IMG/VR virus record: IMGVR_UViG_3300026280_000003
Strand: one strand, 5' to 3'
From: a virus
Length of the DNA: 24,737 nucleotides
The notes below the pieces were generated by a model. It was not told where the DNA came from. It did no database searches and worked only from the letters and a program-made list of their open reading frames with translations. Of this stretch, positions 100 through 18,346 are shown piece by piece. Position numbers and translations under genes: made by a program. Position 1 is the first letter of the stretch, and each line of letters begins with the position of its first letter.

Positions 100-287
100 C
101 TCAGGCGTAATGATGGGTTGGTTTTTCGCGTCACGAGGATTTTCAATGGCTCGGTTGCGTAGCCAATCAAGATCAGCAAATATTGCGCGACGGCGTAGCT
201 TTTTCCTGAACCTGCTCCGCCGAAAATAACAAGTTCAGTACCTTCGCGGATAGCTCTTGAGAAGAATCTCACATACTTAGGAATCAT
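1..287 (-). CDS. terL: Terminase large subunit, N-terminal segment (ATPase domain); continues across the window junction into 23735-24737
   Basis: Reverse-strand translation from the ATG at 287-285: MIPKYVRFFSRAIREGTELVIFGGAGSGKSYAVAQ..., with Walker A GGAGSGKS. The start overlaps the TerS stop. Frame is continuous with ORF 23735..24733 through the 99-bp repeat; combined length about 1191 nt, about 396 aa. Confidence 0.85.
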   Translation of the reverse strand, partial: MIPKYVRFFSRAIREGTELVIFGGAGSGKSYAVAQYLLILIGYATEPLKILVTRKTNPSLRLSALELVKEILSTNNVYFFEQRAEQILSLLDGSR

Positions 288-765
288 CCAATTGCTTGTC
301 CGCGTTTCCGTCATAGTTTGTTTTCTCCTCTTCAGGAAGTTCGATTATAAGCTTGGGTAACTTGTCGAGCTCAATTGCGGTTTCTTTCCTATCTGCCCAT
401 CTGTCGGGCGCGCGGTTCTTGAGGAAGAAAATGATCGCGGTCGTGTCGGGAGGCATGTGCTTTTTCATCACTTCTTGGCGCTCGTACACGGTTTCGTCTT
501 CGCGAATCACGCGATGCACTTTGATTTCTTGGTATTCGTATCCCATCGCGCGCTTGAATAAAGCGTTTTCGACTTTGTGTATCGCTTCTTCTTTGCCTTT
601 TTTTACCGCCTCACCTAATTGAGGATATTTCTTGAGCCATTCATAGAATGTGCGTTCCGATATCCCAAGATTGTGAGCGATTTCTTCTTGAGTTAGTCCT
701 TGCGAAGCATATTCGTAAGCTTGATTGATCATTTCTTTGTTGAACCTCGGTTTTCTTCCTCGCAT
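277..765 (-). CDS. terS: Terminase small subunit (HTH-containing)
   Basis: 162 aa. N-terminal HTH-like segment (LTQEEIAHNLGISERTFYEWL) and a TerS-like motif AIIFFLKNRAPDRW; stop overlaps the TerL start; RBS GGGGGAG upstream. Confidence 0.75.
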   Translation of the reverse strand: MRGRKPRFNKEMINQAYEYASQGLTQEEIAHNLGISERTFYEWLKKYPQLGEAVKKGKEEAIHKVENALFKRAMGYEYQEIKVHRVIREDETVYERQEVMKKHMPPDTTAIIFFLKNRAPDRWADRKETAIELDKLPKLIIELPEEEKTNYDGNADKQLDDS

Positions 766-4611: not shown

Positions 4612-4804
4612 TTTCTTCACCTCCCAAAACTTTCTTCAGTTCCTCGTAGAAGGCTTGTGCCTCGTCCTTTTCGAAGGTTTCCGTGCTCCCGTCTACGAAC
4701 TGGATCTGCAACAGCGGGCCGCGCGCGAAGACGTACGTTATCGCGGATACGTTGTTCGTGTTCAGCCAAATAACACTTTGCTCTTTCTGTAGCCTCACCC
4801 ACAT
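4604..4804 (-). CDS. Hypothetical small protein (66 aa)
   Basis: ATG start; preferred over an overlapping Arg-rich alternative frame (4617..4832). Confidence 0.4.
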   Translation of the reverse strand: MWVRLQKEQSVIWLNTNNVSAITYVFARGPLLQIQFVDGSTETFEKDEAQAFYEELKKVLGGEENE

Positions 4805-4852
4805 GCCTTCGCCTGCCTCCCTCAGGCTCCACCTCCTCCTGAGTTTTCTACA

Positions 4853-4881
4853 TCTAACATAGTGGGAGGGACTATGTTAGA
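4853..4881. promoter_or_regulatory. Perfect 11-bp inverted repeat TCTAACATAGT-GGGAGGG-ACTATGTTAGA in the 5' region of the leftward operon (operator or RNA hairpin)
   Basis: Arms are exact reverse complements; the 7-nt loop GGGAGGG is SD-like on one strand. About 50 nt upstream of the ATG at 4804. Confidence 0.5.
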
Positions 4882-4972
4882 CGTGCTAAAGTTTTTCGAA
4901 TCTCGCTAAGATAATATCGACTAAGTTTTGCGATCGCATGAAGCTACCGTAACGATCCCCAAACGCATAGCT

Positions 4973-5062
4973 GAAAAACACGTGAATTTATCATAGGGAG
5001 AAAAACACGTGGTATGATAGAATTGAAAGAAAATAGTTGTGGTAAACTCCAGGTGTGGTAAA
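4973..5062. repeat. Direct repeats in an AT-rich intergenic region: GAAAAACACGTG x2 (27-bp period) and TGTGGTAAA x2 (16-bp period)
   Basis: Copies at about 4973-4984 and 5000-5011; and at about 5038-5046 and 5054-5062. TGTGGTAAACT recurs on the opposite strand at about 5477-5488, just upstream of the resolvase gene. Confidence 0.5.
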
Positions 5063-5092
5063 ATAGAATATTAGCCTGCTCCACCTCCCTTC

Positions 5093-5129
5093 AAATAGAA
5101 AAAGCGCTTTAACCCTCCTTTGGGAGGGT
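5093..5129 (-). terminator. Putative intrinsic terminator/attenuator overlapping the 3' end of the resolvase gene
   Basis: Minus-strand hairpin ACCCTCC-CAAA-GGAGGGT followed by the palindrome AAAGCGCTTT and a T-rich run TTTTTCTATTT. Confidence 0.45.
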
Positions 5130-5459
5130 ATTTCGTTTCAAAAGTTTCTTCAGGGTCTCTAACTCCATGCAAACAATCCAATCTTTTCTGTCTGCTCTAA
5201 CAAAGAGCAAATCCGCGCGCTCAAGGAAACGATACAGCGTTTCAAAACCGCGTGCGCGCCTCTTGACCTCTACGACCCACTGCGGATGTCCCTTTTCGAA
5301 AACGACGACATCGCCTTTTTGGAACTCGGACGCTCCCGAAAGTGGGACGCGTTTTGCGTCGAAACCGAGCTCGCGAAGGATTTCTTCTGCCTCCTTCTCG
5401 CCACGGTATCCTTTTCTCCGCGAAAGCTTTCCCACAAACAATCCCCCCTTCTCTGCCAT
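5109..5459 (-). CDS. Holliday-junction resolvase, archaeal Hjc-type PD-(D/E)xK nuclease
   Basis: Pattern GYRGEKEAEEILRELGFDAKRVPLSGASEFQKGDVVVF...VVEVK matches the Hjc arrangement (G..E...L...GF...R...SG......D....(E)xK). Likely start is the ATG at about 5459 (RBS GAAGGGG); the track ORF begins at a GTG at 5465. Confidence 0.55.
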   Translation of the reverse strand: MAEKGGLFVGKLSRRKGYRGEKEAEEILRELGFDAKRVPLSGASEFQKGDVVVFEKGHPQWVVEVKRRARGFETLYRFLERADLLFVRADRKDWIVCMELETLKKLLKRNTLPKEG

Positions 5460-5549
5460 TTGCACCCCTTCAACAATAGTTTACCACATGAACGGCGCGG
5501 TGGCTAAGGGAGGAGAACATGGGTTGCGCTTTCTCGGTTTCATCATTCT

Positions 5550-5614
5550 GCAATGTACTTGATCGCAAGTCGTTACGGAGTCTACATTATGTCGCAATGT
5601 AGGGGGGGTATAAT
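5550..5614 (+). promoter_or_regulatory. Control region for the plus-strand operon: three AATGTA half-sites, including the inverted repeat CTACATT-N7-AATGTAG, directly upstream of a TATAAT -10 box
   Basis: GCAATGTAC at about 5550-5558; CTACATT at about 5582-5588; AATGTAG at about 5596-5602; TATAAT at about 5609-5614. No good -35 hexamer at 17-bp spacing; the inverted repeat occupies that position. Confidence 0.5.
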
Positions 5615-5683
5615 TGGGGTGAAAAGTGTTTGAGAAGCCCCGCCGGGTGAGGTGGCGGGAAAACGGGAAAGGAGGGGTGAAGG

Positions 5684-5902
5684 ATGAAAGATGTGCGAAA
5701 AATCATTGAAGATTGGCTCGAGAACAGGATGTGGCATCTCATACCACAAGAGACACGGCAAAAAGCGGAGCAGTTGTTGCAGCAAGGGGTTGCGGGAATC
5801 GATTTAAAGGGTCTCATCATCGTGCTTCATCATTTTGTTACTGAACCGGTCGAGACTCGTTACGGAACCGACATCGTAGCGCAACGAAAGGCAGTAAAAT
5901 AA
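5684..5902 (+). CDS. Hypothetical protein (72 aa), first gene of the only plus-strand operon
   Basis: ATG preceded by GGAAAGGAGGGGTGAAGG; no recognisable motif. Confidence 0.5.
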   Translation: MKDVRKIIEDWLENRMWHLIPQETRQKAEQLLQQGVAGIDLKGLIIVLHHFVTEPVETRYGTDIVAQRKAVK

Positions 5903-5956
5903 AAGTGGAAAACAACAAATGCCGTCGGGGAACGACGGCAAAAGGGAGGGGGAAGT

Positions 5957-6310
5957 ATGGGAAAGATAACTTTAGAGTCATTGGAGGCACCCTATGTCTT
6001 AAAAGAAAGCACGTATTTCTGGCGGACGGAGCGGCATGCGGCCGCGCGCCGCAGCCGCGAGAAATACTACGTGAGCCTGGTAGAAGACTGGTTGAGGCGC
6101 CTTTGTGAACAACACGGGTTGAACCTCAGAATTGAAAAGACAGACACGAGCGTCGCGGCATACAACAAAGATGAGCAGGTATTCAAATTCACAATCAGGT
6201 TAAGTTGCCGCCACGTTTACAAGAGACAAGATGTGAAAAAGTTACTGCGGCTGGTTTCTGAAACGCAAAGGAAAGGAGGTGACGGACGTCCTCCCGCGGC
6301 AGGGGAGTAA
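5957..6310 (+). CDS. Hypothetical protein (117 aa), basic
   Basis: ATG preceded by AGGGAGGGGGAAGT; no recognisable motif. Confidence 0.5.
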   Translation: MGKITLESLEAPYVLKESTYFWRTERHAAARRSREKYYVSLVEDWLRRLCEQHGLNLRIEKTDTSVAAYNKDEQVFKFTIRLSCRHVYKRQDVKKLLRLVSETQRKGGDGRPPAAGE

Positions 6311-6339
6311 AAACGGAGAAGAGGAGGTGGAAGCCCGCG

Positions 6340-6693
6340 GTGGGAGGCGCGGGCAAGGCGATGGGAAAGGCAGAAGTACTTCAAAAGCTGCGCAAATTCT
6401 TGAGAAAGAATCTCTGGGAGATCCCCGAGGTCCAAGAAGCGGTCGCGCAGTTGGAGAGATTGGCCGCGCAGCACGATTGGTACCCCTCAGACGTGCTCAA
6501 CTTTGAAATCATGTATGAGAACAAGCCGCGAGCGCTCAGGATAATTTTCAGTGCTCCTGTTGAAACGCTCGGCGAAGACTCCGTAAAAGAGATGCACCGC
6601 TGGCAAGAAGTAATAGCGACCGCAGTCCAGTCCTTTGTTTTGAAAACCCTCGAAGCCGAAGGTCTCCCATGGGAAATTGTGAACGAGCTCTGA
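6340..6693 (+). CDS. Hypothetical protein (117 aa by the track GTG start; alternative ATG at about 6361)
   Basis: GAGGAGGTGG about 9 nt upstream of the GTG at 6340; ends at a TGA immediately before the bidirectional terminator. Confidence 0.5.
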   Translation: MGGAGKAMGKAEVLQKLRKFLRKNLWEIPEVQEAVAQLERLAAQHDWYPSDVLNFEIMYENKPRALRIIFSAPVETLGEDSVKEMHRWQEVIATAVQSFVLKTLEAEGLPWEIVNEL

Positions 6694-6710
6694 AAAAGCA
6701 CCGCACTGCG

Positions 6711-6741
6711 AAAAGGTCCGCTCACGAGGAGCGGACCTTTT
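6711..6741. terminator. Bidirectional intrinsic terminator between convergent genes
   Basis: AAAA-GGTCCGCTC-ACGAG-GAGCGGACC-TTTT: 9-bp perfect GC-rich stem flanked by an A-tract and a T-tract; located between the plus-strand stop at 6693 and the minus-strand stop at 6744. Confidence 0.8.
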
Positions 6742-6743
6742 GC

Positions 6744-7244
6744 TCAAATCTCGTCGACGTCCAGCACGTCGAAGCGGGTGTATCCGCCAAGCACAAGCGC
6801 TGATTCGATCGCTTCATCGATCATGAAATAACGTTTCGGCAAGAGTACGAACGGTGTGAACATGCGGTATTCGTATTGATACGTGCTTTCGTCGCGCACG
6901 ATGGCAAAAACGTGATTTCGTTCGGGGCGTTTGTGTACCCCTGTGATGTAATATGCCTTCCTCCCGAGCGCCTGCGCGAGCCTGCACACAGCAAGAGCGA
7001 AATCGTCGCAATCTCCTCCGCCGCGCCTTACGAACGCTGGCAAGTCGTATTGGATGTCGAGAAGTCCCCACAGCGGGTCGGGAATGTAGCGAAAGCGCGT
7101 CATGAAGTTTGCGACATCGTCGAGCGTGCGCATCTTGTATGCCTCGGCAATTTTCCTCGCGTACTCCTTTGCGCCTTTTTTGCCTTTTCGAAAGAGCATT
7201 TTCAAGCGGACGTAGAGGCCGAGCATGCCATGGCCACCCCTCAT
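6744..7244 (-). CDS. Transglutaminase-like cysteine peptidase fold protein, last gene of the lysis cassette
   Basis: GGGDCDDFALAVCRLAQALG matches the transglutaminase-core active-site pattern G-x-C-x-x-F-A; a downstream His (NHVFAIV) and Asp candidates are present. ATGA overlap with the upstream small membrane ORF. Confidence 0.5.
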   Translation of the reverse strand: MRGGHGMLGLYVRLKMLFRKGKKGAKEYARKIAEAYKMRTLDDVANFMTRFRYIPDPLWGLLDIQYDLPAFVRRGGGDCDDFALAVCRLAQALGRKAYYITGVHKRPERNHVFAIVRDESTYQYEYRMFTPFVLLPKRYFMIDEAIESALVLGGYTRFDVLDVDEI

Positions 7245-7411
7245 TTTGTGAACTTGCTCGCCACATTGCTGCCGCAGTAGATTCCGAACAACGCGATAAC
7301 GACGTGGGAAAAGTTATCGTTGTCGATCTTGTCGAAAACTTTGAGGAGAAAAAAAGCCGCAATGAGAAGCAGCGCCAAGATGAATTTGCGGCTTTTCCAC
7401 TTCTCTTCCAT
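7241..7411 (-). CDS. Small two-TM membrane protein (56 aa), holin-like
   Basis: Hand-translated: MEEKWKSRKFILALLLIAAFFLLKVFDKIDNDNFSHVVIALFGIYCGSNVASKFTK. RBS GAGGTGA; two hydrophobic segments; stop overlaps the next start. Not in the ORF track (under 60 aa). Confidence 0.45.
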   Translation of the reverse strand: MEEKWKSRKFILALLLIAAFFLLKVFDKIDNDNFSHVVIALFGIYCGSNVASKFTK

Positions 7412-17614: not shown

Positions 17615-18346
17615 TCATTCTGTCATGGTTTGAATCGTCAATTCGGAGATTGTAAACTCTCTTGTCGTTGCGTAGAACTCGTCTGGCGTGTCTTCAGCTG
17701 TTTGCGTTGTCTCATACGCTTTACCCGTGATTGACAATGTTTTATTTGCGCCAAGAGCGATGGAGATTGAGAAGGACACCTCCGAAAGCGTGTTGGAGAG
17801 GCCCGGAGTCGCGTTCAGTTTCACGCTCAGTGTGCCATCAAAAGATTTGAAAATCGTGTCCGCCACGGTTGGGTAAACGTCCGCGCCCCAGATGAATTCA
17901 ACATCCCAGCTCGCGTTCAAATTGAATTCAAGCACGCTAAGTTGGTTCGACCCGACTGTGATTGTTGCATCCTCGAGCATCGCGAGCGTGCCAGGAGCTG
18001 GTGTTGAACTTGGTGGTGTTGCGGTCTTGCCTTTGACCTCAAGCGAGAAGTTTATCACATCCGCTTTCTTACCTGACAAAGTTAGAGACGTCAAAACTCC
18101 TTCGACCGCTTTTCCTGCGCCACCAACGGTCACGCTTGTCATCGCCGAGTGCGTGATAGCGTTCGTGATTGTCGTCGTCGAATCAAGGATACCAGCGATC
18201 GAAGCGGTAGCTAACTTTTTTCGCCCCGCCACAACTGTATAGTGTGGCAAACCTTTGTAAGTCTTCGCTTGGAATTCGTCGGCAAAACTCGCGCTCGTGT
18301 ACAAGCCTCCAAAAGCGTTCACGTGCTGATGATCCACGTATGGCAT
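17615..18346 (-). CDS. Putative major tail (tube) protein (243 aa)
   Basis: Thr/Ser/Ala-rich composition with beta-rich character, at the canonical position before the chaperone and tape measure; no sheath-sized gene is present. Confidence 0.5.
   Translation of the reverse strand: MPYVDHQHVNAFGGLYTSASFADEFQAKTYKGLPHYTVVAGRKKLATASIAGILDSTTTITNAITHSAMTSVTVGGAGKAVEGVLTSLTLSGKKADVINFSLEVKGKTATPPSSTPAPGTLAMLEDATITVGSNQLSVLEFNLNASWDVEFIWGADVYPTVADTIFKSFDGTLSVKLNATPGLSNTLSEVSFSISIALGANKTLSITGKAYETTQTAEDTPDEFYATTREFTISELTIQTMTE

Follow-up and report, generated by a model that had tools for sequence, protein, structure and literature searches.

A back-to-back promoter region with an operator-like dyad beside a variable gene slot in an uncultivated phage

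The IMG/VR virus record IMGVR_UViG_3300026280_000003 is a stretch of 24,737 nucleotides (hereafter, the window) whose first and last 99 nt form an identical direct repeat, so that the sequence represents a closed circle of 24,638 bp. A 50.8-kb JGI contig contains the window at 100% identity and, being about twice the genome length, is probably a concatemer; the same genome is also represented by an ENA contig of 24.8 kb. According to gene calls made independently on identical contigs, only three protein-coding open reading frames (ORFs), ORF1, ORF2 and ORF3, lie on the plus strand, in agreement with a preliminary description of this sequence, which had proposed a circular genome with all other genes on the minus strand. 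The subject here is the 218-nt gap at 5466-5683 (the hub) between ORF1 and the leftward gene for an Hjc/PD-(D/E)xK resolvase. This gap is a real back-to-back promoter region, an element of a familiar kind in a new phage group. The features of the hub and of the adjoining genes, with P_L and P_R denoting the leftward and rightward promoters, UTR the untranslated region and RBS the ribosome-binding site, are the following.

5109-5459/5465, minus strand: Hjc/PD-(D/E)xK resolvase gene (Pfam PDDEXK_15 and Hjc, phrog_244)
5457-5471, minus strand: RBS GAAGGGGTG and resolvase ATG (5459-5457)
5478-5488, minus strand: P_L, TRTG-type extended -10, TGTG-G-TAAACT = TGTGGTAAACT, with the -10 hexamer at 5483-5478
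5535-5549, no strand: conserved block GGTTTCATCATTCTG (GGGTTCATCGTTTTG in types C and E, see below), from alignment, blastn and a register table
5552-5557, plus strand: distal AATGTA at -70, part of a 17-nt imperfect direct repeat (5541-5557 / 5585-5601)
5582-5602, no strand: perfect dyad CTACATT-N7-AATGTAG, candidate operator, with the centre (5592) at -30 of the predicted P_R start
5609-5625, plus strand: P_R, -10 TATAAT at 5609-5614, discriminator TGGGGTG, predicted start A5622, the first A within GTGAAAA
5639-5659, plus strand: G+C-rich 5' UTR stem-loop CCCGCC-N9-GGCGGG; all lineages have a stem-loop, with differing sequences
5684-5902, plus strand: ORF1, 72 aa, orphan
5957-6310, plus strand: ORF2, 117 aa, basic (net charge approximately +8 by residue count), orphan, in types A, B and B' only
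6340-6693, plus strand: ORF3, 110-117 aa, acidic (judged from its sequence), the final gene of the module
6711-6741, no strand: bidirectional terminator-like hairpin AAAA-GGTCCGCTC-ACGAG-GAGCGGACC-TTTT, with an A-run before and a T-run after it

Searches of 50,697 phage records (megablast and tblastn) and of JGI metagenomes (DNA-pattern scan) found no relatives of this genome, and protein and DNA-pattern scans of IMG/VR found no usable one, the helicase scan yielding a single 6.3-kb contig that stops short of the hub. Relatives were reached through homologues of the resolvase and of ORF3, which led to metagenome contigs from hot-spring-type samples, with a contig name, GBSSWat77C, that we take to stand for Great Boiling Spring at 77 C. 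P0004, P0011 and P0014, which are more distant homologues of the resolvase, lie in unrelated gene contexts and were discarded as hub relatives. The contigs used for comparison are these.

Type A: the window, L001-L003 and L012, with the same hub
Type B: L004, 99.3-99.5% identical outside the hub
Type B': L010 and L011/L016 (two independent datasets), with near-identical gene order and a longer resolvase N-terminus
Type C: L005-L008 and L013, with a resolvase 83% identical and flanks at 72-82% nucleotide identity
Type E: L014, related to type C
L021: a distant relative, with an ORF3 homologue 38% identical

Comparison with these relatives fixes the positions of both -10 elements. On the right, TATAAT lies 7 nt ahead of GTGAAAA and, when the lineages are anchored without gaps on GTG and the A that follows it, the hexamer at -13 to -8 is TATAAT in type A, TACGAT in type C, TAGTAT in type E and TATGAT in L021, i.e. 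a TAnnAT box keeps the same register across four lineages, 7 nt before the A; in type B', the box at this position is TGTAAT. In all lineages, the predicted transcript starts with AAAA, followed by a G+C-rich stem-loop and then a strong RBS. The conserved register supports P_R, with a predicted start near 5622. The -35 region of this promoter is poor (TTATGT/ATTATG), so that TATAAT combined with the best -35 scores only 7.1 bits in a weight-matrix scan, and a standard sigma-70 scan with a curated threshold accordingly calls no promoter in 4800-7300, the hub included; L021 has a canonical TTGACA 16 nt upstream of its -10. An Rfam scan of the whole window produced three sub-threshold matches, none of them in the hub. 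Two small reading frames in the hub were rejected: a 27-aa micro-ORF at 5520-5603, which has a strong RBS, GGAGGAG, and would span all three copies of AATGTA, has no ATG at the aligned position in type C, and an upstream ORF from GTG 5628 has no RBS and is a called start only in the rearranged L004.

On the left, the element at 5488-5478 has TRTG at -17 to -14, then one base and a hexamer with T1, A2 and T6, which fits the Gram-positive '-16' form of the extended -10, and its orientation, distance upstream of the gene and conservation in relatives are those of a promoter of this type. The motif TRTGnTAWnnT occurs five times in the genome against 1.14 expected (none of 100 shuffles reaches five), with four of the five copies within 4985-5488; the exact 9-mer TGTGGTAAA is found genome-wide only at 5038 (+), 5054 (+) and 5480 (-). 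The type C relative carries TGTGCTATCAT at the position aligned with P_L, and 6 nt separate the extended -10 from the resolvase RBS in the window and in type C alike; in the 10.7 kb of type C examined, the TRTG-type motif is confined to the early control region. Because the motif is enriched and clustered and type C retains it at the aligned position, 6 nt before the RBS, P_L is accepted as the leftward promoter. Its start is predicted at approximately 5471-5470, which would give the resolvase mRNA a leader of just 11-12 nt. The resolvase ATG is aligned with the type C start, and gene callers give a product of 116 aa. The N-terminus of the resolvase is polymorphic in length (116/118 aa in the window, 131 aa in L010 and L004, 112 aa in type C), which reflects a 45-nt indel at the hub edge (window 5457-5465 versus L010 5950-6006).

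Between the two promoters, AATGTA is present at 5552-5557 and 5596-5601 and TACATT at 5583-5588, and the latter two sites are the arms of the dyad, with TATAAT 6 nt 3' of it. The dyad is the sole match in the genome even with three mismatches allowed. In type C, a different dyad, ACATGA-N5-TCATGT, has its centre at exactly -30.0, the same as in type A; the two have a common core, ACAT-N9-ATGT (ACAT at -38 to -35, ATGT at -25 to -22), and differ by a symmetric change at -34/-26, T/A in type A versus G/C in type C. The chance of a dyad of at least 6 bp at that centre (within 1.5 nt) is approximately 0.0055. Thus, the sequences give reasonable support to a single operator-like dyad on the -35/spacer face of P_R and, given the type C dyad at the same centre, its role as an operator is plausible. 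The preliminary description had placed here three AATGTA half-sites, the dyad, a TATAAT box facing the plus-strand operon and a possible extended -10 facing the leftward genes. A check against the sequence confirms all these coordinates, and both -10 elements keep their positions in diverged relatives; the three copies of AATGTA likewise exist, but the distal one is not conserved, so that an array of three half-sites does not survive the comparison.

The same hexamers might instead serve as -10 elements of additional, overlapping face-to-face promoters, in which case the dyad would be no more than two opposed -10 boxes. In a position-weight scan, the highest sigma-A-like score in the hub, 10.1 bits, is indeed that of TTGATC-N18-TACATT at 5559-5588 (+), and TTCACC-N16-TACATT at 5623-5596 (-) reaches 8.5 bits. 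These -35 elements and spacings are not conserved in type C or E, however, the scan with the curated threshold calls none of them, and scores of 8-10 bits are frequent inside genes, which renders this account improbable.

The hub is a rearrangement hot spot. In L004, positions 1122-1228 correspond to window 5545-5652 in the inverted orientation (97% identity, with looser homology to approximately 5668), and the left breakpoint of the inverted cassette, 5545, falls inside the conserved block at 5535-5549. P_L, the resolvase ATG and 16 nt of the 5' UTR are lost in this strain, and TATAAT and the dyad face the resolvase gene, which is fused to a new called start, a GTG in the flipped 5' UTR. In L010/L011, 99 nt (5490-5588) are deleted between two ACAT repeats, which places P_L beside the dyad's right half and turns the left arm of the dyad into CCACATT. 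Contig L003 has its first base at window position 5537 and so begins 8 nt away from the breakpoint of the inversion, a hint of strain heterogeneity that proves nothing. A near-identical genome with the TATAAT box turned towards the resolvase gene, together with the L003 contig end, is what would be expected of an invertible promoter, i.e. a 108-124-bp cassette that flips between driving ORF1-3 and driving the resolvase and the early operon. Yet the flanks differ between the two orientations, both L004 junctions are associated with deletions, an inferred ancestor offers no more than 8+4 nt of inverted microhomology in place of bounding inverted repeats with identical flanks, no cognate site-specific recombinase gene was found, and the inversion is seen in one contig only. 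Because deletions accompany the inversion, we read it as a fixed rearrangement rather than a switch; a flipping cassette is extremely unlikely.

The genes downstream of P_R are almost devoid of relatives. ORF1 has no match in Pfam, PHROG, PADLOC, NCBIfam, PDB or by tblastn in phage genomes, and it is inactivated independently in near-identical strains, by a 59-nt frameshift deletion in L012, where the hub is intact, and by a 128-nt insertion in L004, L010 and L011; being broken in L012 and in types B and B', it is unlikely to be essential. The insertion, at window 5806/5807 (L004 856-981, L010 6257-6383, L011 293-419), carries short inverted repeats at its ends, GTCTGGC/GCCAGAC, as well as two hairpins that resemble terminators, and thus looks like a miniature inverted-repeat transposable element; when it was used as a tracer of the host, a scan of species genomes gave two chance-like matches in metagenome-assembled genomes (MAGs) of high G+C content. 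The structural model of ORF2 is of low confidence (predicted local distance difference test score, pLDDT, 63.5) and shows a beta-alpha-beta-beta-alpha arrangement, which does not fit the ribbon-helix-helix (RHH) fold that had been guessed from the sequence. ORF2 and ORF3 are not paralogues, no similarity between them being found. ORF3 is the only plus-strand gene kept in the sister lineages (61-65% identity in types C and E), always in the last position, and L014 has two copies of it. Its family has seven matches among 1.84 billion representatives, one of which is a spurious repetitive translation of 1,790 aa. The hairpin at 6711-6741, which is overlapped by a weak Rfam Thr_leader match, separates the operon from the converging end of the long minus-strand operon. 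Another hairpin, between ORF1 and ORF2 (5920-5940), has a T-run on the minus strand only and would therefore stop antisense transcription.

Gene content is hypervariable in the slot that separates the lysis block from the resolvase gene: types A and B hold ORF1-2-3, type C holds six different genes and type E another set, between flanks that are 72-82% identical. In type C, the first gene behind P_R encodes a 213-aa protein with a Csx16 domain (PADLOC 3e-12; Pfam Cas_VVA1548 2e-13), and the adjacent gene encodes a 175-aa protein that matches the PADLOC families 'Unk_02' (1e-30) and 'CRISPR-T' (1.8e-14), both described as of unknown function (L006 6283-6924 (-) and 5708-6235 (+); likewise in L005, L007 and L013). 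Csx16 is a demonstrated cA4-specific ring nuclease that has been found in only 2 of 28,114 phage genomes, and viral ring nucleases, such as AcrIII-1, are described as proteins directed against type III CRISPR systems (PMC12409355). Operons of anti-CRISPR (acr) genes are typically transcribed from a strong early promoter that is repressed, via an inverted repeat, by an Aca (anti-CRISPR-associated) protein encoded alongside them; structured 5' UTR motifs are involved, and an Aca without a helix-turn-helix (HTH), of the RHH type, exists (PMC6765145, PMC9410906, PMC13551039).

Since the slot of the sister lineage starts with a Csx16-domain gene, the plus-strand operon can be read as an early anti-defence unit under acr-aca-like control. 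We put the probability that the gap at 5466-5683 is a divergent early promoter region in which an operator dyad controls such an operon at about one half (0.5). Under this reading, P_L would start the resolvase gene via a very short leader and so provide the entry to the early replication genes, whereas P_R, with a good -10 and no usable -35, would transcribe ORF1-ORF3 through the stem-loop of the 5' UTR to the terminator at 6711-6741. The 21-bp dyad would most likely be the binding site of a dimeric regulator which, when bound, would cover the -35/spacer face of P_R and shut off the operon after an early burst, so that the unit would behave like acr-aca operons, with strong early expression followed by operator-mediated repression. 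The regulator could be ORF2, which is basic, a member of the conserved ORF3 family or a protein of the early leftward genes. It is a speculative and rather unlikely extension of the same reading that ORF1-ORF3 are new anti-defence proteins, acting for instance against type III CRISPR in a thermophile, that are shut off through ACAT-N9-ATGT by a regulator with neither an HTH nor an RHH, ORF2 or ORF3; if so, they would include a structurally new class of Aca-like regulators, and selection on control would explain why the operator cassette has been flipped and deleted so rapidly in strains that are 99% identical.

Several observations weigh against operator control of an anti-defence operon. Type E and L021 have no dyad and nevertheless keep the P_R architecture and an ORF3 homologue. 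The distal AATGTA is not conserved in the relatives, and the clustering of this hexamer is modest: the genome contains 6 copies versus 7.5 expected, three of them within 50 bp, and some hexamer occurs three times within 50 bp of a random 218-nt region with a probability of approximately 0.023. The folding energy of the 5' UTR hairpin is no better than that of shuffled sequences (z = 0.14), so that the evidence for this stem-loop is positional only. P_R has neither a -35 nor a TG extension, and a protein binding the dyad could therefore be an activator. Searches of Pfam, PHROGs, PADLOC, NCBIfam, PDB sequences and phage genomes give no HTH or RHH profile match for ORF1-3, and no HTH or other DNA-binding domain was detected in the small early proteins. 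The models of ORF2 and ORF3 contain no HTH or RHH fold, the former at low confidence, the latter confident (pLDDT 89.3) and still without a structural match in PDB or among the viral models of BFVD. Finally, none of ORF1-3 resembles a known anti-defence protein (zero matches in Pfam, PHROGs, PADLOC, NCBIfam and PDB); the Csx16 domain belongs to the type C relative, not to the window operon, and the anti-defence reading derives from position alone.

Part of this evidence would also be explained if the hub consisted of promoters only, with repeats and a dyad to which no protein binds and a symmetry due to chance and partly inherited from the ancestor of types A and C. An inverted repeat of at least 6 bp is present somewhere in -70 to +5 in 12% of random sequences, clusters of a hexamer such as AATGTA are not enriched genome-wide (approximately 7 independent ones versus 5.4 expected, about as in shuffles), two lineages do without the dyad, and the type A and type C hubs are homologous, so that the common ACAT..ATGT core could reflect descent. 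The two hubs are only loosely similar elsewhere, though, and yet each has a perfect 6-7-bp dyad with the same centre, with arms that extend in different directions and the symmetric change noted above, at a site where chance would rarely place one. We regard this account as possible but doubtful.

A temperate-phage interpretation fares worse. The preliminary description had likened the hub to a repressor-operator switch while noting that no repressor with a recognisable HTH was evident; profile searches agree on the latter point. In a lambda-like lysis-lysogeny switch, the plus-strand operon would encode a maintenance repressor and the dyad would be the operator of a lytic leftward promoter. 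The divergent layout, with a dyad beside a promoter, is compatible with such an arrangement, as is the L010/L011 hub, where the dyad abuts P_L, so that a single protein bound to it could act on both promoters. Approximately 100 nt separate the dyad from P_L in the window, however, and only one dyad and one lone, non-conserved half-site are present in place of two or more similar complete operators; a divergent pair of a CI-type repressor and a Cro-type antagonist is missing, the left side being occupied by the PD-(D/E)xK resolvase gene and the right side by genes with no detected DNA-binding domain. Among the 40 ORFs, there are no PHROG matches to integrase, excisionase, partition (plasmid maintenance), repressor or CI/Cro-like proteins, and one protein-based scan of 185,579 species genomes, with the helicase as the query, revealed no prophage relatives. 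The plus-strand gene content differs between sister lineages, and ORF1 is broken in several strains. Given that neither an integrase nor a recognisable repressor is found, a lysogeny switch is not supported, and the lambda-like scheme is very unlikely.

The rest of the genome, by PHROG and Pfam scans, has a small siphovirus-like layout on the minus strand.

277-765, minus strand: small terminase, with an HTH_Tnp_1-type HTH
across the circle junction, minus strand: large terminase
ending at 6744, minus strand: genes for a Mu-like portal, Mu F and a protease, followed by those for capsid and tape measure and by the lysis block
5465 down to approximately 950, minus strand: early block with the PD-(D/E)xK/Hjc resolvase, a phrog_10048/GemA-like protein and an AAA_25 helicase with a C-terminal winged-helix domain (an additional Pfam match)

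The best-annotated relatives of the resolvase come from thermophilic Firmicutes-like MAGs and one Archaeoglobaceae MAG. The genome is, in the preferred reading, that of a small, probably virulent phage of a thermophile. Contrary to the preliminary description, the hub is not its only control region: a further four TRTG-type -10 motifs, distributed over both strands, lie in the gap of 304 nt at 4805-5108, which also has a conserved promoter-terminator unit on the plus strand.

4973-5064, no strand: second control region, cryptic and divergent
4995-4985, minus strand: leftward TATGATAAATT, bracketed by two copies of GAAAAACACGTG (4973-4984 and 5000-5011)
5013, 5038 and 5054, plus strand: rightward TRTG-type boxes TATGATAGAAT, TGTGGTAAACT and TGTGGTAAAAT, respectively
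5071-5137, plus strand: small transcription unit (approximately 65 nt) that converges on the resolvase gene at its 3' end

The small unit comprises a conserved GCTCCACCTCCCTTCA motif (a CCUCC-containing 16-mer), a hairpin at 5112-5129 and a T-run. Type C keeps its promoter (TGTGGTATAAT) and the core of the 16-mer, with a different terminator stem sequence, and has in the same gap a 168-aa plus-strand gene with its own TGTGGTAGAAT promoter. Upstream of a 66-aa early gene, there is a hairpin, ACATCTAACATAGT-GGGAGGG-ACTATGTTAGACGT (4850-4884), of which type C keeps the 10-bp stem and the GGGAGG loop. Other promoter-like sites, all on the minus strand, are TTGACT-17-TGnTAATCT at 928-956, just upstream of the small terminase gene, a possible late promoter; TTGAAT-16-TATATT at 2314-2341, in the gap at 2096-2394; and TGTGATAAACT at 18049-18059, within a tail gene. 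Just downstream of the helicase gene, an array of direct and inverted GTTTCTA(A/C) repeats, some of them in repeat units of 21-35 nt (2142-2400), with a perfect 14-bp palindromic hairpin inside it (2265-2298), may be a replication origin.

If the anti-defence reading is correct, the hub would point to a locus with an anti-defence role in a phage from a hot spring that has not been cultivated. The most useful lead to emerge from this analysis is the link, by position, to counter-defence genes. The relatives of the operon genes are limited to a handful of metagenome contigs, and the Csx16 family, seen in just two cultured phage genomes, has a member in the same slot of the sister lineage. The P_R architecture (TAnnAT, 7 nt, GTGAAAA, stem-loop) could then flag new counter-defence genes and regulators in viruses of thermophiles, and the intact, inverted and deleted forms of the hub constitute a ready natural series that bears on the function of the dyad.

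Each of the known systems with which the hub can be compared shares some of its traits. Like the divergent control regions of temperate phages (lambda PR/PRM with OR1-3; Mu Pe/Pc with O1-O3), the hub has back-to-back promoters with a dyad between or over them and is flanked by a small opposite-strand module on one side and by the early replication genes on the other; moreover, the phage has Mu-like head genes (Portal_Mu, Mu F and a Mu-like protease). In contrast to lambda and Mu, no repressor, Cro/Ner-like protein, integrase, transposase or tandem operator array was found in this phage, and its opposite-strand genes are interchangeable accessory genes. With invertible promoters (fimS, Hin/Gin/Cin, Bacteroides invertons), the hub has in common a promoter segment of approximately 110 bp that is present in both orientations in near-identical genomes, but the phage cassette has neither clean flanking inverted repeats nor a recombinase, and deletions accompany its inversion. 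The extended -10 promoters with a '-16 region' (TRTG) in Gram-positive bacteria, reportedly described by Voskuil and Chambliss in 1998, match P_L closely, with TGTG, one base and a TAnnnT hexamer and no requirement for a -35; the phage repeats this form across its early units and the sister lineage keeps it, the difference being the predicted leader of only 11-12 nt on the resolvase mRNA. From the acr-aca operons, the window operon differs in the lack of a detectable HTH or RHH protein and of any match of ORF1-3 to a known Acr or Aca; its conserved gene, ORF3, is acidic, has an unmatched fold and is present also in the dyad-less lineages, and repression is, in this phage, a proposal. The likeness lies in the organization: small orphan genes are grouped into a short operon at a variable locus of the phage, an inverted repeat (the candidate operator at 5582-5602) overlaps the promoter, the 5' UTR contains a stem-loop, the last gene is conserved and the first ones vary, and the sister lineage has a Csx16-domain gene in the first position.

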